Shown piece after piece: positions 2,686-44,690 of a DNA stretch of 44,690 nt. Position numbers and translations under genes: made by a program. The notes under the pieces are model-generated. The model searched no databases. It was not told the origin of the DNA and worked only from the letters and a program-made list of their open reading frames with translations. The stretch is from Mycobacteriales bacterium (GTDB lineage: Bacteria; Actinomycetota; Actinomycetes; JALYNC01). The stretch is from NCBI GenBank assembly GCA_051000715.1, contig JBPCOB010000133.1, positions 1 to 44,690 on the forward strand. The letters run 5' to 3'. The stretch's first letter is position 1. The number at the start of each line of letters is the position of its first letter.

Positions 2686-4371
2686 ATGACCCTGCACGCG
2701 CTGACCGCGAACATCCGCGTCGACCTGCCCGACCGGGATGCCGAGACCGAGATCCGCCGCGACCTCGCTTTCGGCCCGGATGTGCTGCTGCTCCAGGAGG
2801 TCGGGGGCCGCGCCGCGGTCTTCGACCGAATTGCCGGCGAGGGCGTCTACGGCGAGGTGCGCTTCGGCCGACAGTCGGGCATCGGGGGCGGGGCGGCTAG
2901 GAACAACGTGATCCTCTACCGCCGGGCACGGCTCGGGCTCACCGACCGGGAGAGCACGTTGCTGCACCGGAGCATCCTCTTCCGGAGCGCGACCCGGTAC
3001 CTGACCTCCGCGCTGTTCCTCGACCAGCAGACCGGGCGACCGGTCCCGGTCAACAACGTGCACATGGTGCCGCACGCCGACACGAGCGCCGGCTGGCTGA
3101 CCAGCTACCCGCGCCGCCGCCTCGTCATCGCCGCGCTCGATGTCATCACCGCGAAGATCGCCGTGCAGAAGGCATCCGGCGCTCTGGTGATCACCGGCGG
3201 CGACTGGAACAACAACGACAAGGCGGACGCCGGTCAGGACAAGGCGAACGTGCAGGCTCGCCTTGGTGCGGTGGGCGCACGCTCCAACTTCGACGTGCTC
3301 GGGACCGCCGCCTACACCGGCACCCACGGCCGCGACTTCTACGACTCGATCTACGTCACCGGCCCGGCGGCGTTCGCCCGGGAGACCGTGCATCCGCGTG
3401 GCCTGTCCGACCATCACGCCGTGTCCGTCTGGCTCGAAGTGGCACCCATCAAGCCCGCACCGGTCCCGGCTGCATCTGTCCCCGTCGTCACACCCGCACC
3501 TACCCCGACCGCCGCACCGAAGGAGCCCCTCATGGCCGCACGCATCGACGGCATCGACTTGTCCCACTGGCAGAGCGGCGCGCTCGACTTCAACGCCGCG
3601 AAGCGCGCCGGCGTCCGCTTCGTGTCCCACAAGGCCTCCGAGGGGACCGACTACCGGGATGCGAAGTACGGGCAGCGTCGCCGTGAATGCGCGGCGGCCG
3701 GTGTCCCGTTCGGTGCCTACCACTTCGCCCGGCCCAGCCGGTCCGGTGGCACCGCACAGGCGAAGTTCTTCCTCTCGGTCGCCGACCCGAAGCCCGGCGA
3801 CCTGCGGCCCATGCTCGACCTCGAAGACCGCGGAGGTCTGTCCATCGGGCCACTGAGCGGATGGGTCGGTGACTTCGTGGCCGAGGTCGTCCGCCAGATC
3901 GGTGTGCCGCCGTTCATCTACACGTCTTTCGACCTGGATGACACTTTCGACTGCCCGCTGTGGGTGGCGCGGTACTCGAACGCCATGTCGGCCCCGCACA
4001 TCCCGGCGCCGTGGAAGCGGTACACCATCTGGCAGTTCTCGGACGGTGTCTACGGTCACCCGTCGACGGTGCCCGGCATCGGTAAGTGCGACATCAACAC
4101 GCTGAACACGTCCGACCCGGCGGCGCTGGTGAAGGCGTTCATCCTCACTGCTCCCGCCGCACCCGAGCCCGCCGTCGTCGAGCCGAAGCCCGCACTGACC
4201 CCCACTCAGGAGCCCACCGTGCCGAACAACCGGATCACCCAGGCCCGCGGCCACCTCGCGACCGCCCTGAAGCTGCTCGACGACGCCCAGAGCATCGAGC
4301 ACCGCACCGGCTGGGTGCGGATCGCCACCGGTGTCATCCGCACCGGCTACAACCGACTCCCCAGGAGCTGA
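2686..4371 (+). CDS. endolysin: N-terminal endonuclease/exonuclease/phosphatase (EEP) domain fused to GH25 muramidase, plus Pro/Ala linker and C-terminal helical region
   Basis: EEP motifs in order: LTANIRV, LLLQEV, NVHMV, GGDWN, LSDHHAV. GH25 motifs: GIDLSHWQ, FVSHKASEGTDYRD, GAYHFARP, MLDLED. GGAGG RBS lies before ATG 2686. Confidence 0.8.
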   Translation: MTLHALTANIRVDLPDRDAETEIRRDLAFGPDVLLLQEVGGRAAVFDRIAGEGVYGEVRFGRQSGIGGGAARNNVILYRRARLGLTDRESTLLHRSILFRSATRYLTSALFLDQQTGRPVPVNNVHMVPHADTSAGWLTSYPRRRLVIAALDVITAKIAVQKASGALVITGGDWNNNDKADAGQDKANVQARLGAVGARSNFDVLGTAAYTGTHGRDFYDSIYVTGPAAFARETVHPRGLSDHHAVSVWLEVAPIKPAPVPAASVPVVTPAPTPTAAPKEPLMAARIDGIDLSHWQSGALDFNAAKRAGVRFVSHKASEGTDYRDAKYGQRRRECAAAGVPFGAYHFARPSRSGGTAQAKFFLSVADPKPGDLRPMLDLEDRGGLSIGPLSGWVGDFVAEVVRQIGVPPFIYTSFDLDDTFDCPLWVARYSNAMSAPHIPAPWKRYTIWQFSDGVYGHPSTVPGIGKCDINTLNTSDPAALVKAFILTAPAAPEPAVVEPKPALTPTQEPTVPNNRITQARGHLATALKLLDDAQSIEHRTGWVRIATGVIRTGYNRLPRS

Positions 4372-4372
4372 C

Positions 4373-4744
4373 ATGACGATCACGGACGTGCAGACCGACG
4401 CCAGGGACGGCACGACCCATCCCTATGGGGTCCGCGTCGGCGACCCAGTCCACTACTGGCGCGCCGACGCCCCTCCGCTGTCGGAGACGTACGAGGCCCC
4501 CGCCTGCTGGCACGGCCTGGTCCTGGGATTCTCCTACGACGATGCGCGCTCGATCTGGCTCGCTGACCTCGTGGTGGTGGACCCTCACGAGGGCTCGCTG
4601 CACCTTGTCCGAGCAGCTCCGCAGTCAGAGTCGACCGCCTCAACCGTGCGCATCGGCGGCGAGTGCGGCGAGCCGTCGTGGGGGGTCGGCGCTTCGTGGC
4701 ATCGACCAATCACGGGCCACCTACGAACCAATCTGAGGAGCTGA
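4373..4744 (+). CDS. hypothetical protein (123 aa) between lysin and holin
   Basis: ATG 4373 follows AGGAG and overlaps the lysin stop region. Same frame as ORF 4331..4744. Confidence 0.6.
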   Translation: MTITDVQTDARDGTTHPYGVRVGDPVHYWRADAPPLSETYEAPACWHGLVLGFSYDDARSIWLADLVVVDPHEGSLHLVRAAPQSESTASTVRIGGECGEPSWGVGASWHRPITGHLRTNLRS

Positions 4745-4746
4745 CC

Positions 4747-4950
4747 ATGAACGTCATTCGCACCGAGCCCGCGCTTGTTGTCGCCGTCGTCCTCGCCGTC
4801 ATCGGCGTGGCGTCGGCGTTCGGCCTCGGCCTTACCGATGGGCAGGCGGATGCGATCGTGGCTGTCGTCGGCGCGGTTCTCGCGCTCGTCGGTGGCGCGG
4901 TCACCCGCACCCAGGTGACACCGGCCGCCAAGCACGCAAGGGAGAACTGA
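4747..4950 (+). CDS. putative holin (67 aa, two transmembrane segments)
   Basis: ATG 4747 after GAGGAG. Hydrophobic segments are ALVVAVVLAVIGVASAFGLGL and AIVAVVGAVLALVGGAV, followed by a charged C-terminus. Position is next to the lysin. Confidence 0.6.
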   Translation: MNVIRTEPALVVAVVLAVIGVASAFGLGLTDGQADAIVAVVGAVLALVGGAVTRTQVTPAAKHAREN

Positions 4951-4951
4951 C

Positions 4952-5293
4952 ATGGCTTTCACCGATGCAGCACTGAATGCCGCTGTCGACGGTATCGCGG
5001 CGGCCGGGTCGTGGATCTCCGCGCACACCGCTGACCCTGTCGCCACGGGCACGGCTCAGGCCGGGACTCGGGTGCAGACCACGTGGGGTGCTGCCGGGTC
5101 GGGTGCGACCGGTGGGGATCGGACGGGTTCGCAGGTGAGCATCGGGGTCGCCGCCGGGGTCACGGTGACTCATTGGGGGCTGTGGTCGGCGACGGCGGCG
5201 GGGACGTTCTTGGGTGGTTTCGCGCTGGGTGCACCGGAGGCGTTCGGGGCGGCGGGGAACCTGCTGCTGACGCCGACCCTCGACGTCGACTGA
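4952..5293 (+). CDS. hypothetical Gly/Ala-rich protein (family often annotated as minor tail protein in actinophages)
   Basis: ORF 4952..5293 with RBS aagggagaa. The pattern MAFTDAALNAAVDGI...HTADPVATGTA...G resembles a recurrent actinophage family (recollection only). Confidence 0.55.
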   Translation: MAFTDAALNAAVDGIAAAGSWISAHTADPVATGTAQAGTRVQTTWGAAGSGATGGDRTGSQVSIGVAAGVTVTHWGLWSATAAGTFLGGFALGAPEAFGAAGNLLLTPTLDVD

Positions 5294-7294: not shown

Positions 7295-7590
7295 GAATGT
7301 TTCGCGGCGACCTGCTCCCCGACCTGCAGATCACCTGCACCGACAACGACGCCCCCGTCGACCTGACCACCGCTACCGGCATCCGAGTCATCGGCGTCAC
7401 AGCTGGCAAAGTCCTCTTCGACCGGGCCGTGACCGGCACAGCCAGCGGCCTGGTCACGATGGTCTGGGAGACGGCCGACACCGCCGCACCCGGACGCGTC
7501 GCCGTCGAGGTCGAGGTCACCTGGCCCGGGGTGCGTCCGCAGACTTTCCGGCCCGCGCAGGTTGTCGACATCGTTGCCGACTACGCCTGA
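7291..7590 (+). CDS. small beta-rich hypothetical protein (tail-accessory/Ig-like character), last gene of the late operon
   Basis: ORF 7291..7590 with ATGA overlap with the upstream gene. The pattern DLTTATGIRVIGV...VTMVWETADTAAPGRVAVEVEVTWPG resembles small baseplate-associated N-domains (weak). Confidence 0.6.
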   Translation: MRMFRGDLLPDLQITCTDNDAPVDLTTATGIRVIGVTAGKVLFDRAVTGTASGLVTMVWETADTAAPGRVAVEVEVTWPGVRPQTFRPAQVVDIVADYA

Positions 7591-7609
7591 ACCAACGCTC
7601 TCACCACCA

Positions 7610-7642
7610 CCCCCGTCACCCTTCCGTGGCGGGGGTCTTGTC
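7610..7642 (+). terminator. hairpin terminator candidate 1 after the late operon
   Basis: CCCCCGTCAC (7610-7619) pairs with GTGGCGGGGG (7626-7635). This gives a 10-bp stem with one G-U and loop CCTTCC, followed by TCTTGTC. Confidence 0.5.
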
Positions 7643-7714
7643 ATGTGCGGCAGACAGCAGGTACTGTCTGGAGTTCTAGCTGGGCTAACGCTCATACGGG
7701 ATGGGCTCCGGACC

Positions 7715-7759
7715 CGCCCCGCCACCTCACGGATGGCGGGGCGTATTTTTATGTCTTTT
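7715..7759. terminator. strong intrinsic terminator (plus strand, U-tract), possibly bidirectional for the convergent minus-strand operon
   Basis: CGCCCCGCCA (7715-7724) pairs perfectly with TGGCGGGGCG (7734-7743), with a 9-nt loop, followed by TATTTTTATGTCTTTT. Confidence 0.75.
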
Positions 7760-7804
7760 GGGCACTCAAGAGGCGCCGACGGCGGGGGCTTTCGCGCGTC
7801 CGGG

Positions 7805-8206
7805 TCAGGAAGCGTCGCAGGAGACAATGGCGTACTGCCCAGATGCAGTGTTCTTGGCGACCTGCTTGCCGTCGACCGTCACCGAGCATGTGATCGTGCC
7901 TCGGCCCTGGTTCTGCGCAGACAGGCTGTAGACCGAGAAGAACTCGTCCTTCACGGTGAACGCCTTGGTCCAGGGCAGCTTCTGGCCGTTCTCCTGGGAG
8001 ATGTTCGACCCGTCAGGCGTAGTGGAGAATGTCATGTCGGCACGCTTGGCCGTCCCACCGATCTTGTAGATGACCTTCGTCGTTGCGCTATCGGATCCAC
8101 CGCCGGACCCACCGCCACCACTGAGCGAGACCGCGACCACGACCACGATGATGACCACGACCAGGGCCACGATGCCCAGGCAGCCGACCTTGAAGATGCG
8201 TCCCAT
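7805..8206 (-). CDS. MmpS-like small membrane protein (N-terminal TM anchor plus beta-rich ectodomain with two Cys)
   Basis: ORF 7805..8206 minus. Features are the TM segment GCLGIVALVVVIIVVVVAV, a Gly/Ser linker, then VIYKIGGTAKRADMTF...QKLPWTKAF...ITCSVTVDGKQVAK...AIVSC, a typical MmpS pattern. Confidence 0.6.
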   Translation of the reverse strand: MGRIFKVGCLGIVALVVVIIVVVVAVSLSGGGGSGGGSDSATTKVIYKIGGTAKRADMTFSTTPDGSNISQENGQKLPWTKAFTVKDEFFSVYSLSAQNQGRGTITCSVTVDGKQVAKNTASGQYAIVSCDAS

Positions 8207-8265
8207 GAAGTCCCCCGTCCAGGGATCGAGTGCATTGGTCCGGCCACCGTACGCCTAATCGAGTG

Positions 8266-8275
8266 GTCATGAGAT
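8266..8275. repeat. 10-bp direct repeat GTCATGAGAT, copy at the stop codon of the HNH-like gene
   Basis: The identical decamer occurs at 8676-8685, overlapping the start codon of the same gene. Confidence 0.8.
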
Positions 8276-8680
8276 GACGTCGGCGGCCAAGACGGACCAT
8301 AGAAGGTCTGCCGACCTGCCGCCACCCCTGTGCGCCAACGCCACCACCCGCCCCCAGACGATGCGCTCCCACCTGTTCATCTGATCCCACCCTTCCGGCC
8401 AGCTCATCGGGGGGTCACCTAGCAGGGCGCTCCCGAGTATGCCCAGGTTTGCGAGGCGTCGCACGGCCGTGAGCCCCTCCTTGGCAGGCAATCCTCTGAG
8501 CCCACCGCGATCCTTGAGGTCGTGGCAGGTAACGCAAGCTGGGACCACTTCTTGCCCGCCTGCACACCGAGGGACTGGCGCGTGGTCGTGTTCGTGGCGA
8601 GTGCGTCCGAACGGGGCTGAGCAGTAGAAGCAACGCTCGCAGTCATCGTTTGCTAGCGGGGAATCGAGAGGATCTGTCAT
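8267..8680 (-). CDS. HNH-motif zinc-finger protein with uncharacterised C-terminal domain (137 aa)
   Basis: Start is the cat at 8678-8680. Motif is CERCFYC...HEHDHAPVPRCAGG...VPACVTCHDLK (CxxC, HxxDH, GG, CxxCH). The 234-aa ORF-track version runs antisense into the recombinase gene. Confidence 0.6.
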   Translation of the reverse strand: MTDPLDSPLANDDCERCFYCSAPFGRTRHEHDHAPVPRCAGGQEVVPACVTCHDLKDRGGLRGLPAKEGLTAVRRLANLGILGSALLGDPPMSWPEGWDQMNRWERIVWGRVVALAHRGGGRSADLLWSVLAADVIS

Positions 8681-8685
8681 GAGAT
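8676..8685. repeat. 10-bp direct repeat GTCATGAGAT, copy at the start codon of the HNH-like gene
   Basis: See 8266-8275. Confidence 0.8.
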
Positions 8686-8706
8686 CTAGTCTACGCGTGC
8701 GTGACC

Positions 8707-8712
8707 TATAAT
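8707..8712 (+). promoter_or_regulatory. perfect TATAAT -10 box, candidate leaderless promoter for recombinase 2
   Basis: TATAAT lies at 8707-8712, and the ATG at 8720 lies 7-8 nt downstream, which is the geometry of actinobacterial leaderless transcripts. No convincing -35 was found. Confidence 0.4.
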
Positions 8713-8719
8713 GGTGATT

Positions 8720-9529
8720 ATGGGAATAGGTGAGCCCGTAGACCGTCTCGTCGCCGACTGGCTGGACTACCTCGCGCATGAACGCAACCTGTCTGCGAAC
8801 ACCGTCGCCACCTACGCCCGGACGCTGCGCACCCTTTCCGGCGCGGACACCGCGACACGCGAAGACGTGGAGGCGTGGGCGCGTTCGCGCTCGCACCTGT
8901 CGCCTGCCACCCGGAACAACGAACTCTCGGCTGTTCGGAAGTTCTACCAGTGGTGTCGCATCTGGGGGCACCGGCCGGAGACCGACGATCCGACCCTGCG
9001 CCTGCTCGGGCCGAAGATGGCCAGCGGTCTGCCCCGGCCGATCTCAAGAGACGACCTGAACCGGCTGCTCGACACGTTGAAGGGCGACCTGCGCCGCACG
9101 GTCTGCCTCGGCGCCTATGCCGGGCTACGCGTCAGCGAGGCCGCGGCGCAGGTGTGGGAGGATGTCGACGTCGAGAACCGTCGCGTCCGCGTCACCGGAA
9201 AGGGACAGAAGACTCGACTAGTGGGGCTCTCGTCGCTGTTGCTCGACTCGCTGCTGCCTGACACTGGCGGCAGCGTCGTCACGGCTGGGGAGACGCCCTA
9301 CACGGCGGGAACGTTGCAGCGGAAGGTCAACCGGGCAATCGAGGCGGCAGGTGTGGACGTGACCTATCACCAGCTCCGGCACCGGTTCGGCACAGTAGCG
9401 CTGGGTGCGTCGGGCAACCTGCTCGCGGTGTCGCGGGCGATGGGTCACTCATCTCCGGCGACGACGGCGATCTACGCGGCCACCTCCGACTCTGATCTCG
9501 ACGTGATCGCCGAAGCCGTCACCCGTTAG
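8720..9529 (+). CDS. tyrosine recombinase 2 (XerC/D-like, ~270 aa; alternative start 8711)
   Basis: ORF 8711..9529. The catalytic set is present: AGLRVSE (Arg), GKGQKTR (Lys), HQLRHRF (His-x-x-Arg), GHSS (His), AIYA (Tyr). There is a SAM-like N-domain WLDYLAHERNLSANTV. Confidence 0.8.
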   Translation: MGIGEPVDRLVADWLDYLAHERNLSANTVATYARTLRTLSGADTATREDVEAWARSRSHLSPATRNNELSAVRKFYQWCRIWGHRPETDDPTLRLLGPKMASGLPRPISRDDLNRLLDTLKGDLRRTVCLGAYAGLRVSEAAAQVWEDVDVENRRVRVTGKGQKTRLVGLSSLLLDSLLPDTGGSVVTAGETPYTAGTLQRKVNRAIEAAGVDVTYHQLRHRFGTVALGASGNLLAVSRAMGHSSPATTAIYAATSDSDLDVIAEAVTR

Positions 9530-10338
9530 GCGGCGGCCGCTAGCATCGCGGCACGCACCGACTCGTCCGGGATCGCGACGTAGATCGCCGTGGTCTCCGG
9601 CTTCGCATGCCCGAGCAGCTCCTGGACGGCGCGCAGGTCGCGGGTGCCCGCGTAGGAGACGGTCGCGCACCGGTGCCTCAGGGTGTGCGTGGTCAGGTCA
9701 TCGGGCAGGCACCGGGTGACAAGCTTCCCAAGATGGTGCGGCGTCAGGTGCCCGCCGTGCGTGGACGGGAACAGCCAGCCCGGTGCGTGCTCGGTGATGA
9801 GCGCGGCGAGCTCGTCGGTCAGCGGCACCATCCGCACGTGCCCGCCCTTGCCGGTCACCCGCAGGCTCGACCCGAGCAGGTCGGGCTCCACGTGCTCGGT
9901 GCGGGTCCGGGCGATCTCGGCGCGCCGCAGGCCGCACTGCCCGGCGAGCAGGACCGCCAGCCGCACCCGTTCGTCGGCGATGGCCAGGGCGAGCCGGTAG
10001 GCGGCTTCCGGCGCCGGTCGTGGCTTCCCGCGGGGGACCCGGACCGGTGGCAGCAGGTGCGCCGGCGATGTGGTGACCCGTCCGGTGGCGGTCGCCCATC
10101 TGTAGAAGGCGCGCAGCGACCCTCGGTAGGCGCGCCGGGTGTTCGGTGCCCAGTCGTGGCCGGCGAGCCACGTCACGAGCTCGTCGAAGGTCAGTGTGGC
10201 CGGCCCTGTGCTCGTCTCCCGTGCGAGCCGGGTCAGGTGGTAGGTGCGTAGTCCGATGGTGGTCTCGGGGGAGCCGGTCGCGCGCAGGTAGTTCTCCCAC
10301 GCCGCGATGTGCTCGGTCCAGGTGCGTGTAGGTGTCAT
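9526..10338 (-). CDS. int: tyrosine integrase (recombinase 1), co-oriented with the repressor, C-terminus ...MLAAAA
   Basis: ORF 9526..10338 minus. Motifs are GLRRAEI (Arg), GKGGHVR (Lys), HTLRHRC, LGHAKP, AIYV (Tyr). Its stop overlaps the stop of recombinase 2 (TTAG at 9526-9529). Confidence 0.8.
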   Translation of the reverse strand: MTPTRTWTEHIAAWENYLRATGSPETTIGLRTYHLTRLARETSTGPATLTFDELVTWLAGHDWAPNTRRAYRGSLRAFYRWATATGRVTTSPAHLLPPVRVPRGKPRPAPEAAYRLALAIADERVRLAVLLAGQCGLRRAEIARTRTEHVEPDLLGSSLRVTGKGGHVRMVPLTDELAALITEHAPGWLFPSTHGGHLTPHHLGKLVTRCLPDDLTTHTLRHRCATVSYAGTRDLRAVQELLGHAKPETTAIYVAIPDESVRAAMLAAAA

Positions 10339-10365
10339 CTACGTCTGTTCCCCCGTGGCCGTGGG

Positions 10366-10725
10366 TCACGCCGCCGCGTAAAGTCGCAGGTCAGCGCGGT
10401 AATGCTCTAGGTCAGCGGGTTCGGGGTTCAAGTCCCTGCTGGCGCACACATCTGCCCCGTTCGGCCCGTTGGGGCTGGACGGGGCGTTTCCGTCTCTGAG
10501 CCATTCCAGCGGCACGCCGGTCCGCATGGCCCACACCTTGAGGTAGGCCGACTTCGGCGGTGCCCCACGGTCGGTCATCCATCGGCTGAGCGTGGCGCGA
10601 CTGACGCCTAGCTCATCGGCCATGTCCTCGACGCTGATGTCTCGCAGTGACATCTTGAGCCGCCACCCCAGCGTGAGCTGTGGGATCGTGCCGACTTCGC
10701 TTCGTAGATTGCTCATAGCAAGCAT
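10366..10725 (-). CDS. HTH immunity repressor (119 aa), C-terminus ...RLYAAA
   Basis: ORF 10366..10725 minus. HTH is SVEDMADELGVSRATLSRWMTDRG. It is divergent from a Cro/Xis-like gene and sits upstream of int in the same orientation. Confidence 0.7.
   Translation of the reverse strand: MLAMSNLRSEVGTIPQLTLGWRLKMSLRDISVEDMADELGVSRATLSRWMTDRGAPPKSAYLKVWAMRTGVPLEWLRDGNAPSSPNGPNGADVCASRDLNPEPADLEHYRADLRLYAAA
10422..10448 (+). other. putative attP common core: mimic of the 3' end of a tRNA gene, located inside the repressor ORF
   Basis: CGGGGTTCAAGTCCCTGCTGGCGCACA reads as T-stem, T-loop TTCAAGT, T-stem CCCTG, acceptor strand CTGGCGC and discriminator A. No D-arm, anticodon arm or 5' acceptor strand lies upstream. 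Confidence 0.6.
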
Positions 10726-10763
10726 GGTGGCCCATGTGACGTATGTGCGTCAAGTGGTCAGGG

Positions 10764-10791
10764 TTGAAAGATTCTCGGGCGTGGCTATTGC
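10764..10791 (+). promoter_or_regulatory. candidate rightward early promoter in the switch region
   Basis: TTGAAA (10764-10769), a 16-nt spacer, then TATTGC (10786-10791). The -10 is weak. TGTGAC/TGTGCG-type short repeats flank it (10735, 10745, 10797, 10806). Confidence 0.3.
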
Positions 10792-10822
10792 GCGCCGTGC
10801 GACATTGTGACATGGTTCCGTC

Positions 10823-11008
10823 ATGGCACACGACGAGCTCATCACCAGCCCCGAAGCCGGAGCCATCCTCTGCCGCTCCGCCCGCACCGTCCACCGACTC
10901 GTCGAAGCCGGCGCGCTGGTCCCCGTCAAGCAGCTCTCCGGCCCCAACGGCGCTTATCTCTTCCGTCGCGCCGATGTCGAAAACTTGGCGAAGAGGGTGC
11001 CGGCATGA
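10823..11008 (+). CDS. small HTH protein (excisionase-family fold), Cro-like or Xis-like first gene of the rightward operon
   Basis: ORF 10823..11008. Motif is ITSPEAGAILCRSARTVHRLVEAGAL...YLFRRADVENL. Confidence 0.6.
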   Translation: MAHDELITSPEAGAILCRSARTVHRLVEAGALVPVKQLSGPNGAYLFRRADVENLAKRVPA

Positions 11009-11280
11009 CACCAGCGGGATATGCAGACGCCAGCCCCAACCTCCGGGCAGATGGAGAGCGAGAGACCGAGTTCCTCTCACCCCGCGTGCTGATGCGTGAG
11101 GCCGCCAAGGTCTGTGACGACCTCGGCCTCAGCATTCGCGGCGCACGTCTGCGCTCGATGATCGACCGCTTCGTCACTGAGGGCCGCGGCGACATCGACT
11201 TCCGCACGTGGTTCATCGCCTACGCCGACCCCACCGGTGAGACCGCAGTCCGCAACGTCATGCGAGAGGAACGGCCATGA
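11005..11280 (+). CDS. hypothetical protein (91 aa)
   Basis: ATG 11005 overlaps the upstream stop (ATGA). Frame of ORF 10807..11280. Confidence 0.6.
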   Translation: MTPAGYADASPNLRADGERETEFLSPRVLMREAAKVCDDLGLSIRGARLRSMIDRFVTEGRGDIDFRTWFIAYADPTGETAVRNVMREERP

Positions 11281-11681
11281 ACAACCACGCGAAGCGCTGC
11301 ATCAAGAACCTCGAAGCGCTCGGCTTCTATCGCGATCACGACGCGCAGACTCGCGGACTCGCCTACCGGCACCCGAACGCCCCCGACCAGGTGCTCAAAG
11401 TGTTCGACCAGATGACGGACTCCACGATCACGTCCGTCATTCGCAAGGCGAACAAGATCGCGGACACCGGCTGGTCCGGCCCACGGCAGCCCGAGACGGT
11501 CAAAGAGCGTGCGCGGGTCACGCACTCCAAGAACAAGTCGCAATGGCAGCGCGAGGACGAGGCGCGCCGAGCACGCGCAGAGGTGGCCGAGCGTGCACAT
11601 GAGGACCGAAGTCGGACCGAAGTCGAGACGGAACATCGCCGCGAAGTTGAAGATCTCATGCAGCCGGGTTACGGCCGATGA
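11277..11681 (+). CDS. hypothetical protein with Arg/Glu-rich C-terminal helix (134 aa)
   Basis: ORF 11277..11681 with ATGA overlaps on both sides. Confidence 0.6.
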   Translation: MNNHAKRCIKNLEALGFYRDHDAQTRGLAYRHPNAPDQVLKVFDQMTDSTITSVIRKANKIADTGWSGPRQPETVKERARVTHSKNKSQWQREDEARRARAEVAERAHEDRSRTEVETEHRREVEDLMQPGYGR

Positions 11682-18219: not shown

Positions 18220-19358
18220 ACGCGCCCTATTACGCCGACGAGTCGGTCCAGTTGTACCACGGTGACTGTCTCGACATCCTCCGCTCCGACATTCTCGGCT
18301 ACGAGCACTCTCTCGGCTATTTCCCACCATTGATCCCCGGCAGCAGTATCGATTCGGTAGTCACAGACCCGCCGTACGGGCTGGAGTTCATGGGCAAGGA
18401 GTGGGACGGCGCCAACGGGTTCCGCCGCTCGCTCAACCCGGCCGACGTAGAGCGGGACAACCCATTCGGGCGCACATCGAAGACCTCCCCCGAGTACCGC
18501 GCTGGTCAGACGTTCGGTCTCTGGTGCCTCGCGTGGTCGGAGGAGTGTCTGCGTGTGCTCAAGCCGGGCGGCCACATGCTCGCCTTCGGTGGCACCCGCA
18601 CCAGCCACCGTCTCGCCTGCGCCATCGAGGACGCCGGCTTCGAGATCCGCGACAGCATCGCCTACTTACACGCCACTGGAGGTCAGCAAACCGATATACT
18701 TACCGAGTGGAGAAAGTGGACTGTAAGTACGAGATATGCGGGGGTCAGATTCTCGGACGCGCCGCCCGGCGGTTCTGCTCCCGAGCCTGTTCTGCTCGCA
18801 ACCAGTCTCGAAAACTCACCTGCGTCTGCAATCATTGCGGGACTCAATTCCAACGAAGCCCGTCACACCGACGCGGACAACTGGCGTTCTGCTCTGTCGA
18901 GTGCCGGCGCCAGTACTACGGCGTCGAAGGCCCTTGTGACCATTGCGGGACATCCACCAGGAAGCCGAGGTCCAACACCGGATACAACGGCTTCTTCTGC
19001 TCACAGCGGTGCATGGGACTGGCTCGACGCAAACATCATGGCCAGACTCAAGGCCGGAACAGCCCTGAGGATATGGCTTGGAAGCAAGCCATCTACAAAG
19101 CCGGCGGCTACCGCTGCGCTGTGTGCGGCACTGACCGACGACTTGAAGCTCATCACGTGCGCTCAGTCCGAGACTTTCCAGAGCTACGACACGACCTCTC
19201 AAATGGTGTGTGTCTCTGCCACGACTGTCACTACTACGGCGTACACGGCGGCGCACCTAATTTCATTCACGGCCGCTACTCTCGCAAGCCAGGGGGGTGA
19301 TGCCACGGAAAGTCAGTCCGGTCCCCTCGCATGGGTCTACGGATCTGGCTTTCCGTGA
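18216..19358 (+). CDS. N4/N6 DNA methyltransferase (beta-class order), N-terminal fragment: catalytic DPPY half, 669-nt foreign insert read through in frame, then WVYGSGFP and a TGA
   Basis: GTG 18216 follows GAGGAGG. Motifs are VVTDPPYGLEFMGKEWD, LAFGGTRT and AIEDAGFEIRDSIA (ends 18662). The insert spans 18663-19331. WVYGSGFP is at 19332-19355 and the stop at 19356-19358. Confidence 0.65.
   Translation: MNAPYYADESVQLYHGDCLDILRSDILGYEHSLGYFPPLIPGSSIDSVVTDPPYGLEFMGKEWDGANGFRRSLNPADVERDNPFGRTSKTSPEYRAGQTFGLWCLAWSEECLRVLKPGGHMLAFGGTRTSHRLACAIEDAGFEIRDSIAYLHATGGQQTDILTEWRKWTVSTRYAGVRFSDAPPGGSAPEPVLLATSLENSPASAIIAGLNSNEARHTDADNWRSALSSAGASTTASKALVTIAGHPPGSRGPTPDTTASSAHSGAWDWLDANIMARLKAGTALRIWLGSKPSTKPAATAALCAALTDDLKLITCAQSETFQSYDTTSQMVCVSATTVTTTAYTAAHLISFTAATLASQGGDATESQSGPLAWVYGSGFP
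18663..19331 (+). mobile_element. HNH homing-endonuclease cassette inserted in the methyltransferase gene
   Basis: A 669-nt block interrupts the conserved segment ...EIRDSIA | WVYGSGFP.... By my count the first 80 nt are ~49 percent G+C, against roughly two-thirds elsewhere by eye. It carries an HNH ORF in another frame. Confidence 0.65.
18707..19300 (+). CDS. HNH endonuclease with three N-terminal CxxC...FCSxxC zinc-ribbon repeats
   Basis: Frame of ORF 18401..19300, with GTG starts at 18707 or 18716. Repeats are CKYEICGG..FCSRAC, CVCNHCG..FCSVEC and CDHCG..FCSQRC. The HNH motif is YRCAVCG..LEAHH...NGVCLCHDCH. Confidence 0.7.
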   Translation: MEKVDCKYEICGGQILGRAARRFCSRACSARNQSRKLTCVCNHCGTQFQRSPSHRRGQLAFCSVECRRQYYGVEGPCDHCGTSTRKPRSNTGYNGFFCSQRCMGLARRKHHGQTQGRNSPEDMAWKQAIYKAGGYRCAVCGTDRRLEAHHVRSVRDFPELRHDLSNGVCLCHDCHYYGVHGGAPNFIHGRYSRKPGG

Positions 19359-19370
19359 AAGTCGAAGTCG

Positions 19371-20342
19371 TTGGACGTGGGCCGGGCGATCGACAAGGCG
19401 GCGGGGGTTGAGCGGGAGGTCGTGGGGCAACGCGTTGCTACTGGGACTGCTCGCAAGTCCACGACTCACACCGGCATCGGCGCAGCGGTAAGCAACAAGG
19501 CCGAACCGCGTGACTACATCGACACGGTTGTCAACCTGACCGCCCCTGCCACCCCCGACGCCGAACGCTGGCAGGGCTGGGGCACTGCGCTGAAGCCCGC
19601 CCACGAGCCGATCGTGGTCGCCCGGAAGCCGCTGTCCGGGAACGTCGCCGCGAACGTGCTGGCGCACGGGACCGGGGCGCTGAACATCGACGGGTGCCGG
19701 GTGGCTGGCGACGAGGACGGGTCGCGTAACCGGCCCGCATCGCGGCTCGGGAGCAGTGACACCTACGCGCAGGACGAGTGGACACGCACCGCCGTTGTCG
19801 AACGGCAGGACACGACAGGCAAAGGTCGCTGGCCCGCGAACGTGGTCCTCGACGAGTCGCAGGCAGCGGTGCTCGATGCGATGAGCGGACAGACTCGCTC
19901 GTCGGGCTTCTTCACGTTTGGCGAGGGCGATTTCAACGGCCCCGCCTCGGTCAACATAAACCGCGAGGGTTACACCTCAGGCCAGTATGACGACCAAGGT
20001 GGCGCATCCCGATTCTTCTACGTCGCCAAGGCCGGCGCCTCAGAGCGACCCCGCGTCAACGGAATCAGTCACCCGACGACAAAACCTCTGACCCTCATGC
20101 GGTACCTCGCGCGACTCGTCACCCCACCCGGCGGCACGGTTCTCGAACCCTTCGCGGGCAGCGGAACCACCGTCGAGGCGTGCATCCTCGAAGGCTTCCG
20201 GTGCATCGCCATCGAGCGCGAGGCCGACTACCTGCCGTTGATCGTGCAGCGCATCACTCGACGCCGCGACCCCGTGGCTGCCGTGAAGTCGGCGGGCACT
20301 GACGGCGGACTGTTCGACCTACTCGACGGCGGTGTCGCCTGA
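19371..20342 (+). CDS. N4/N6 DNA methyltransferase, C-terminal fragment (target-recognition region plus AdoMet-binding FxGxG half)
   Basis: Same frame as 18216..19358. Motifs are LDVGRAIDKAAGVEREVVG, WQGWGTALKPAHEPIVVARKP, GRWPANV, HPTTKPL and VLEPFAGSGTT. The only starts are TTG 19371 or GTG 19377, and no clear RBS is present. Confidence 0.6.
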   Translation: MDVGRAIDKAAGVEREVVGQRVATGTARKSTTHTGIGAAVSNKAEPRDYIDTVVNLTAPATPDAERWQGWGTALKPAHEPIVVARKPLSGNVAANVLAHGTGALNIDGCRVAGDEDGSRNRPASRLGSSDTYAQDEWTRTAVVERQDTTGKGRWPANVVLDESQAAVLDAMSGQTRSSGFFTFGEGDFNGPASVNINREGYTSGQYDDQGGASRFFYVAKAGASERPRVNGISHPTTKPLTLMRYLARLVTPPGGTVLEPFAGSGTTVEACILEGFRCIAIEREADYLPLIVQRITRRRDPVAAVKSAGTDGGLFDLLDGGVA

Positions 20343-44076: not shown

Positions 44077-44690
44077 GTGAAAACCCAGGAGGATGGCCAG
44101 GCTGACCTCACCGCCGACGACTACGCCGATCGCGCGACCCGCAACGAGGGGCGCCTGGTCGGCCTGGAGCGCCTAGTCGCGGAGACCCGCGAGTCCGACC
44201 GAAAACTCACCGAGCAGCGGTCCGAGTCGCTGGCCCGCGAGTTGGAGCGGCGCGCCGATGCCCTGCGGGAACTGGTGACGGCCCACGCCGACGCCGTGAC
44301 CAGCCTCGGGCGGGAGGAGCGACGAGCCGACCGTCTCCATGTGGAGACGGTCACCACTGAGGCCGAGAAGCGCGGCCAGCTGGCGCTCGGACTTCTCCGC
44401 GAGGTCTACGACACCGCGCTCGAAAAGAATTACGAGCAGTCCCGCGAAGCAATCACCGGCCTTGAGCAGCGCCGCACTGCCGAGGTGGCCAAAATTGAGC
44501 AGATGGTCCGCCAGTGGCGCGACTCTGACCGCGAGGCACGGGAGTTGTTCGCCGCCGAGCTGGCCCGCCACCTGGACGCGCTGAACCACAACAACGAGCG
44601 GATGCGGGAGTTCCAGACAAACTCGGTTACCCGTGAGCTGTGGCAGTCGGAGAAGGATGCTGCAATCACCCGCGAAGGACTCCTGCGTGA
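44077..44690 (+). CDS. tail-anchored coiled-coil membrane protein, N-terminal part (continues at base 128 after removing the overlap; ~300 aa total)
   Basis: GTG 44077 (alternative GTG 44041) opens a frame with no stop to the window end. It is in phase with ORF 39..416 and encodes a charged heptad-like sequence (LERLVAETRESDRKLTEQRSESLARELERRADALREL...). Confidence 0.65.
   Translation, partial: MKTQEDGQADLTADDYADRATRNEGRLVGLERLVAETRESDRKLTEQRSESLARELERRADALRELVTAHADAVTSLGREERRADRLHVETVTTEAEKRGQLALGLLREVYDTALEKNYEQSREAITGLEQRRTAEVAKIEQMVRQWRDSDREARELFAAELARHLDALNHNNERMREFQTNSVTRELWQSEKDAAITREGLLR
44564..44690. repeat. terminal overlap copy B (identical to 1..127)
   Basis: See copy A. Confidence 0.95.

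Follow-up and report, generated by a model that had tools for sequence, protein, structure and literature searches.

A dif-like inverted repeat accompanies one of two tail-to-tail tyrosine recombinases in an actinophage genome from a sediment metagenome

The 44,690-nt contig JBPCOB010000133.1 (hereafter, the window), a phage genome assembled from a sediment metagenome, carries two tyrosine recombinase genes that meet tail to tail, which we call Int2 (8720–9529, + strand) and Int1 (9526–10338, − strand). We found that members of a large metagenomic family to which Int2 belongs are associated with a 28-bp inverted repeat resembling the chromosomal dif sites of Actinobacteria, and that Int1 is the integrase of an integration-dependent immunity cassette. 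We propose, with a probability of about 0.5, that the two genes belong to autonomous recombination modules, arranged tail to tail where the late operon gives way to the early operon of a temperate phage, and that Int2 acts at the dif-like site. The recombinase pair as such is a known curiosity, while the dif-like site is, as far as could be checked, a new element.

The candidate recombination site of Int2 lies at 8701–8728 on the + strand and reads GTGACCTATAA / TGGTGA / TTATGGGAATA, an inverted repeat with 11-6-11 geometry that is present in a single copy in the genome and whose right arm contains the Int2 start codon at 8720. A k-mer search 5′ of Int2 in diverse loci recovered TGACCGATAA, which is the left arm of the inverted repeat; across the family the repeat follows the pattern [G/T/C]TGACC[G/T/C]ATAA, 6 bp, TTAT[C/T/G]GG.... 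The window site deviates from this consensus by a T for G in the left arm and by its central TGGTGA, and locus L072 has a site of the same subtype. The original prediction had read a TATAAT promoter box at 8707–8712, but these positions are the inner end of the left arm, and relatives read CGATAA there, with no −10 consensus.

We assembled 84 non-redundant Int2-family loci from public contigs (cited here by L numbers), classed their tyrosine recombinases with two family hidden Markov models (HMMs), and scanned these 480 kb with a loose pattern, CC-N-A-[TG]-AA-N6-TT-[AC]-[ATC], using composition-preserving shuffles as a control. The pattern matched 44 times, against a shuffle mean of 2.39 (maximum 6) and 0 matches in the reversed sequences. 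The 44 matches correspond to 34 sites, one per locus, in 34 of the 84 loci; 29 of the 34 lie 5′ of Int2 on its strand, and 16 are within 200 nt of the Int2 start. More distant sites, with other genes between site and Int2, occur in L009 (−857), L040 (−1406) and L018 (−4574). No such repeat was found in loci holding Int1-type genes only or in the lysogeny region of the Gordonia phage Bowser. An exact-pattern search of IMG/VR returned at least 119 matches, nearly all of them chance matches in AT-rich contigs; among the matches listed, five were in contigs of ≥60% G+C, and three of these five preceded an Int2-family gene and were correctly oriented. The arm variants CCGATAA, CCTATAA and CCCATAA each recur among related Int2 lineages, a pattern that would fit recognition by Int2 and, equally, simple linkage. 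As far as could be checked, an Int2 family with a dif mimic has not been described before; among the best-matching full texts, none combined a dif-like site with actinobacteriophages, mycobacteriophages, prophages and XerC. The integrated Nocardioides oceani element (L018, 4074–7079) also carries a third tyrosine recombinase gene (4074–4991); the dif-like site of this element is ~430 bp 3′ of that gene, immediately precedes a ParB-like gene and is 4.6 kb away from the Int2-family gene.

Predicted dif sites of Actinobacteria include TTGACCGATAA GAGACA TTATGTCATTT in P. acnes, ATCGCCGATAA CTGACA TTATGTCAGGT in Nocardioides JS614, TAAGCCGATAA GCGACA TTATGTCAAGT in M. tuberculosis and ACTACCGATAA GCCACA TTATGTCAACT in Mycobacterium spp. 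(Kono et al. 2011, PMC3025954). The phage site resembles them in its 11-6-11 geometry, in the ATAA/TTAT at the inner arm ends and in its XerC arm, and the left arm of L016, L028, L050 and L055 is identical at 11/11 nt to TTGACCGATAA, the predicted XerC arm of P. acnes. Of the phage central regions, about half have ACA or AGA as their last three letters (e.g., CGTACA and CAGACA), compared with ACA in actinobacterial dif. The outer right arm, however, is unlike the XerD arm and differs even between L027 and L043, which belong to the same tight Int2 clade. This asymmetry resembles that of integrative mobile elements exploiting Xer (IMEX): in the attP (phage attachment site) of TLC phage and that of the gonococcal genetic island, the XerC arm and central region are conserved and the XerD arm is divergent (PMC5357621). 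The phage sites are likewise 28-bp dif mimics with the XerC arm kept, the XerD arm divergent and the central region kept in part. In contrast to IMEX, which lack a recombinase and use host XerCD (PMC5357621), an Xer-like recombinase gene is linked to the site, and the element is a tailed dsDNA actinophage.

Int2 is at most ~33% identical to any cultured phage protein (~30% to cultured phage integrases), and more than 100 metagenomic proteins are 60–76% identical to it. The family alignment has 47 invariant columns among 31 members, and Int2 keeps the family-invariant residues. In most of the 84 loci the Int2-family gene is the only recombinase in the fetched stretch, and three genomic contexts can be told apart. 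In the commonest (30 loci), Int2 lies on the main strand of the genome as the only recombinase in the fetched stretch and is followed, usually within ~100 bp, by an HTH_17 gene with a leaderless-type promoter. In the second (L028–L030, L055 and L083), Int2 is the sole recombinase, lies 3′ of a repressor gene and is divergent from HTH_17; one Int2-family protein of this context ends in -VAA. In the third, which is that of the window, Int2 faces a convergent second integrase on the leftward strand. The three contexts are mixed across the Int2 tree, and the dif-like site is present in all of them. Int1-type genes, for their part, also occur in loci without Int2.

Both recombinases of the window are intact, as the original prediction had claimed: two convergent enzymes of ~270 aa with full catalytic sets and no arm-binding N-terminal domain. 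Int2 has 269 aa from the start at 8720, which is the one used in the public gene call (an alternative in-frame ATG at 8711 would give 272 aa), and Int1 has 270 aa and ends in ...MLAAAA. Both match Pfam Phage_integrase (PF00589; Int2 70.7 bits, Int1 67.6 bits, gathering cut-off 27.1), and Int2 also has a SAM-like core-binding domain above the cut-off, the corresponding Int1 match being weak and below it; a Pfam scan found no arm-binding domain in either protein. The catalytic residues, which we assigned by XerD residue numbering, are R137, K161, H217-x-x-R220, H243 and Y252 in Int2 (counted from the ATG at 8720) and R138, K164, H218-x-x-R221, H244 and Y253 in Int1. Int2 scores 464 bits against its family HMM, compared with 430–480 for single-recombinase members, so that one gene being a decayed copy, which the original prediction had named as one refuting case, was not borne out. 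The two proteins are 30% identical, which rules out a recent duplication. Their scores against the NCBIfam models TIGR02224/TIGR02225 (116/109 bits for Int2 and 93/70 bits for Int1) are far under the cut-offs of 335/330, and Int2 is also far under the NCBIfam XerS cut-off, indicating that both enzymes are Xer-like in architecture but not Xer orthologues. The best solved-structure match of Int1 and of Int2 alike was 5vfz (listed as Gp33), the integrase of mycobacteriophage Brujita, with XerD and XerA next. The Brujita integrase is of the "simple, arm-less, directionless" type.

The stop codons overlap within TTAG (9526–9529), as predicted, with the Int2 TAG at 9527–9529 and the Int1 TAA as the complement of 9526–9528. 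We found no terminator-like site between the two genes and no full sigma-70 consensus promoter anywhere in 7400–11300. Given the overlapping stops and the lack of a terminator, each transcript is expected to run antisense through the other gene, and expression of Int1 and Int2 is probably mutually antagonistic. A 36-nt inverted repeat, 78% complementary, lies on either side of the stop overlap (9455–9490 and 9565–9600). It might fold into a cruciform or let antisense transcripts pair, but the homologous ...TTAIY... coding segments of the two convergent genes account for it by themselves.

Int1, the HTH_3/XRE immunity repressor (10366–10725, − strand; 119 aa; Pfam HTH_3 and Phage_CI_repr; PHROG 2328, transcriptional repressor) and an attP core form an integration-dependent immunity system. 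Int1 lies directly 3′ of the repressor gene, across a gap of 27 nt, and both proteins carry ssrA-like Ala tails (repressor ...LYAAA; Int1 ...MLAAAA) that, by analogy with ssrA, may act as degradation tags. The original prediction had noted the repressor linkage and the tail, correctly. The common core, corresponding to the 3′ part of a host tRNA-Lys(CUU), lies at ~10415–10447 (+ strand) within the 3′ end of the repressor gene. It contains the T-arm motif GGTTCAAGTCC at 10425–10435, and an Rfam search gave a tRNA-like match to the T-arm and acceptor over 10404–10445. Logan contigs of the source run break at 10419–10441, where the summed depth goes from 42 to 339; other contigs of that run read ...GGACTCTTAATCC before 10415, then share the common ~33 bp, and continue into unrelated sequence after 10447. 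GGACTCTTAATCC is the anticodon loop of tRNA-Lys(CUU). Int1 recombines the 10415–10447 core with the tRNA-Lys(CUU) gene of the host at the 3′ end of that gene, and integration, to judge from known systems, would remove the Ala tail of the repressor. A tRNA-type attP was also considered for Int2 and rejected: the only T-arm motif in the window is that of the Int1 core, and no tRNA-like core lies near Int2 genes that are the sole integrase.

Integration-dependent immunity was described in the mycobacteriophages BPs, Brujita and Charlie by Broussard et al. 2013, as cited in PMC4982277 and PMC5559632, and the Gordonia cluster CW phages likewise target tRNA-Lys (PMC5559632). As in these phages, the integrase lies directly 3′ of the repressor, the attP core is in the 3′ end of the repressor gene, both proteins carry ssrA-like Ala tails and the integrase is arm-less. 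Int1 is ~50% identical to the integrases of the cluster CW phages McGonagall, GMA5 and GRU3 and 45–48% identical to several mycobacteriophage integrases, and family members are present in Nocardioides, Aeromicrobium and Calidifontibacter genomes. The window differs from the described phages in three respects: Int1 reaches only ~50% identity with integrases of cultured phages, its host has not been cultured, and a second recombinase abuts the Int1 stop codon.

The same tail-to-tail junction recurs in several lineages. The motif CGY-TAG-GC, with a 4-nt overlap made of the Int2 end ...CGY TAG and, on the opposite strand, the final Ala codon and stop of the partner, was found in the window, L009 (identical to L049), L015/L040 and L104, with differing partner types. 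The Int2 proteins of these four overlapping-stop lineages are 54–76% identical to one another, and every partner has -AA or -VA at its C-terminus. In L013, L018, L019 and L107 the pair is looser, the two genes being separated by a gap or by inserted genes, and L068, which is cut by a contig end, is probably another such case. A tRNA-like core lies just 5′ of the partner wherever its start region was available (window, L013, L019 and L040).

At least four or five types of partner integrase can be distinguished, and they are reshuffled relative to the Int2 clades. The window Int2 is 71–73% identical to the Int2 of L009, L015 and L040, and their partners are 39–43% identical to Int1. For L013 and L019, identity to Int1 is higher (partners 57% and 52%), but identity to the window Int2 is lower (63% and 58%). 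L018 and L104 have a partner type in common (47%), yet theirs are the most distant Int2 proteins (47%). This reassortment argues for independent modules and against a co-evolving heteromer. In the chromosomes of Nocardioides oceani (L018) and N. hankookensis (L019), host genes start shortly beyond the partner integrase, with a partial tRNA 3′ end at the host/prophage junction of L019, and Int2 is internal to the prophage in both; the partner, and not Int2, therefore inserted these prophages. When the window is compared with its Int2-only relatives, nucleotide similarity starts inside Int2 and stops no more than 3 nt past its stop codon. The sequence GAAAGATT, which stands directly 3′ of the Int2 stop in Int2-only relatives (the L027 group), is found in the window at 10766, in the divergent regulatory region between the repressor and HTH_17 genes (10726–10822) and 5′ of HTH_17. 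The end of similarity and the position of GAAAGATT give the order of the window as Int2 module, Int1-repressor cassette and HTH_17 module. A search 3′ of Int2-only genes for relics of lost partner integrases returned none, only Int2 fragments.

By these comparisons, Int1 and Int2 are two independent modules, and two proposals of the original prediction lose ground. That 7805–9529 had been inserted as a unit does not agree with the similarity boundaries just described, nor with relatives that have the repeat and Int2 without the membrane-protein and HNH-like genes. That Int1 and Int2 are a heteromeric pair of the XerC/XerD kind acting at one site is hardly credible. The tail-to-tail pairing does recur, and pairwise identities of Int2 and partner correlate positively (Spearman 0.68, the comparisons not being independent). 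However, each family is found alone far more often than paired, the partners reassort, and a different partner type brings a different tRNA-type attP, whereas the site of Int2 remains dif-like throughout. The chromosomal prophage ends lie by the partner integrase, at a partial tRNA 3′ end in L019, and the phage site lacks a XerD arm.

The identification of a candidate site makes two further suggestions of the original prediction, a second integration specificity and a multimer resolvase, concrete. In the reading that we favor, Int2 would bind 8701–8728 and recombine it with a second dif-like site. That Int2 thereby integrates the phage at the host chromosomal dif, or at a dif-like site, seems plausible to us at somewhat less than even odds, and a phage-borne recombinase would then provide a second lysogeny route independent of tRNA-Lys. 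Loci L028–L030, L055 and L083 speak for integration, as the repeat lies there between the repressor and Int2, with no other recombinase and no tRNA-like core. The dif mimicry with its IMEX-like asymmetry would count on the same side by analogy, as do the layout of an attP beside its integrase and the adjacent excisionase-like HTH_17 gene.

A number of observations weigh against Int2 acting at the repeat as an integrase. The central regions vary among phages, and the TGGTGA of the window is not dif-like. No copy integrated via the dif-like site appeared in limited searches of the 84 loci, 14 genome matches and the source run, and the integrated prophage of L018 has its site uninterrupted. The source run holds one continuous contig without loose ends at the site and no alternative junction contig, a weak negative because contigs drop rare forms. 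No XRE-type repressor was found within ~6 kb of Int2 in Int2-only loci. The contigs of ~190 Int2-family clusters are all ≤49 kb, with no named isolate, whereas the Int1 family includes three contigs of >100 kb and named isolates, a contrast that is suggestive but statistically weak. Finally, the promoter region of Int2 and the repeat overlap, so that the latter could be an operator. An elaboration in which a widespread, as yet uncultured group of tailed actinophages inserts at dif in the manner of IMEX but with an enzyme of its own, and in which the overlap with a tRNA-targeting integrase serves phages like that of the window as a transcriptional-interference toggle between two lysogeny routes, strikes us as unlikely.

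Int2 and its site could instead form a system like Cre/loxP or XerS/difSL that recombines copies of the phage's own site, in multimer resolution or cyclization, a reading that we regard as possible but on the doubtful side. Cre/loxP of phage P1 consists of a simple tyrosine recombinase gene next to a single inverted-repeat site. XerS/difSL and XerH/difH also place one simple tyrosine recombinase beside a single inverted-repeat site, with a 6–8 bp spacer, and resolution systems of plasmids and phages are usually laid out, as found for Int2, with a single site per genome right next to the gene of the recombinase (PMC5357621). The free variation of central regions between phages would suit such a function, as would the lack of a repressor near Int2 in Int2-only phages, the phage-sized contigs of the family, and the intact site beside a ParB-like gene in the integrated L018 prophage. 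Those systems, however, resolve chromosome or plasmid dimers, and a homomeric resolvase would not be expected to use a strongly asymmetric site, with a conserved left arm and an outer right arm that varies between close relatives (L027/L043). Nor is there an obvious need of multimer resolution in a phage that, like that of the window with Int1, integrates into the chromosome; family members occupy the canonical integrase position by the repressor, and the fetched stretches of Int2-only loci showed no genes for partition or plasmid replication.

We consider it quite improbable that Int2 is a functionless passenger of mosaic module exchange without a usable site here. The deviation of the window site from the family consensus (T for G, central TGGTGA) could be read in this way, and the locus is a hot spot with Int2 C-terminal fragments (L006, L098 and L055) and a tandem copy (L079); moreover, the second integration system of Bowser and Utz may be non-functional for want of an attP (PMC5559632, PMC5255912). 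Yet Int2 has a complete catalytic set and a full-strength family score, the tail-to-tail junction has been preserved across four lineages with Int2 identities of 54–76%, and the site is kept next to Int2, with L072 of the same subtype. Very unlikely, too, is that the repeat is only the promoter or operator of the Int2 unit and that the true Int2 site is elsewhere or in the host. The repeat always heads the Int2 transcription unit, 20–35 nt 5′ of leaderless-type −10 elements, and in the window it has TATAAT 7 nt before the ATG. Nevertheless, its 11-6-11 geometry, inner ATAA/TTAT and XerC-arm identity are those of the recombination-site class and unlike operators of helix-turn-helix proteins, it differs from the palindromes of the HTH_17 promoters, and its arm variants recur among related Int2 lineages; a recombinase autoregulating at its own site would unite both roles. 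A shufflon or invertase of the Rin type was considered and rejected, as the site is single and the tail, lysis and lysogeny regions hold no strong inverted repeats.

Actinophages that carry two intact tyrosine integrases were known before, among them the Gordonia phages Bowser, Howe, Utz and Oregano and the Arthrobacter phages of clusters FF, FA and AY (PMC4982277, PMC5559632, PMC13097055, PMC9670964). Bowser was described as having a "curious" rightward second integrase that converges on an integration-dependent immunity cassette and for which no attP was found (PMC4982277); Utz and Howe are similar (PMC5559632), and such second integrases have been ascribed to recent rearrangement or loss of function (PMC5559632, PMC5255912). 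The layout of the window matches that of Bowser, with a rightward integrase (gp37), a leftward integrase-repressor pair (gp39–gp40) and a rightward DNA-binding protein (gp41), but gp37 falls outside the Int2 family (49 bits). The dif-like site also sets the window apart from the two-integrase phages of Gordonia and Arthrobacter, as none was found in the Bowser region and none has been reported for the others. Locus L107, on a contig of 59% G+C, has a complete tRNA-Arg(TCT) gene (5048–5125) between its Int2-family gene and the convergent partner, a layout that mirrors that of Arthrobacter cluster FF phages such as QuinnAvery, in which a tRNA lies between the integrases. A further parallel is gp50 of Bacillus Tyrovirus, a phage Xer-like recombinase by an 11-6-11 repeat in a phage with several tyrosine recombinases; it differs in the host phylum, in a site that is 3′ of the gene and perfectly palindromic, and in that no dif mimicry was reported (PMC9703825).

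Second integrases without an attP have been noted in Gordonia and Arthrobacter phages since 2016 and have usually been dismissed as recombination debris. A large conserved Int2 family and a specific 28-bp dif look-alike give this puzzle a testable target. If integration at dif is true, tailed phages would join filamentous phages and genomic islands in targeting dif, with an enzyme of their own, and the small arm-less enzyme and 28-bp site would make a compact recombination tool for high-G+C Actinobacteria. If resolution is true, an episomal or carrier state would be expected in the phages without a repressor near Int2.

The HTH_17 gene (10823–11008, + strand; MerR/excisionase-like; Pfam HTH_17 and PHROG excisionase families) is the first of the rightward early operon. 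We compared the Int2–HTH_17 intergenic regions of L006, L044, L057, L065, L100 and L109 with window positions 10726–10822. The HTH_17 promoters are of the leaderless type, with TTGAC, a gap of ~17 nt, TAGGTT or TAAGTT, and an ATG 6–7 nt further on, and between the hexamers there are palindromes such as ACCTAGGT or CCTAAGT...ACTTAGG, which are probably operators distinct from the dif-like repeat. C-terminal fragments of Int2 lie on the same strand 3′ of an intact Int2 in L006 (7135–7548), L098 (1214–1624) and L055; the L055 fragment sits directly after Int2, the L006 fragment is followed by a second HTH_17 gene, and L079 (230–2142) has two tandem full-length Int2-family copies. These fragments look like scars of module replacement at a recombination hot spot. 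One further locus, L020, a 94-kb contig of a metagenome-assembled genome labeled Acidobacteriota, was considered as an Int2-only prophage and not used, as its host/phage boundary is away from the repeat and its Int2 is frameshifted. Within positions 1–4100 of L020, genes of host type, for an ABC permease and a regulator, run into phage tail-fiber-like genes at a point that is no attachment site, probably as a long-read chimera or a sequencing-error artifact.

The phage genome as a whole has a G+C content of ~67% and is complete; among the sequencing runs covered, the source run alone contains it. Positions 1–127 and 44564–44690 form an exact 127-bp direct repeat, indicating a circular assembly of a complete genome of ~44.56 kb, and an open reading frame that leaves the window at its 3′ end resumes at the 5′ end. 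Genes for the terminase, tape measure and tail are followed by a lysis cassette (peptidase and GH25/EEP endolysin), Gp80-like and repeat-rich late genes, the recombinase region and the rightward early operon. Megablast against cultured phages found no nucleotide-level relative, and an IMG/VR search with the flanking methylase and a 134-aa gene as queries found no syntenic relative. Upstream of the dif-like site are an MmpS-like membrane protein gene (7805–8206, − strand), with a weak Pfam Mycobact_memb match and PHROG 8241, and a Cys/His-rich gene with an HNH motif (8267–8680, − strand), which has no Pfam or PHROG match. These two genes are not beside Int2 in relatives and thus lie outside the Int2 module, and they look like separate insertions upstream of the site. 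The decamer GTCATGAGAT occurs as a direct repeat at 8266–8275 and 8676–8685, exactly flanking the HNH-motif gene. Logan contigs of the source run also break at 4068–4097 (inside the endolysin gene), 18366–18408 and 19556–19585, probably due to k-mers common to related phages in the sample.

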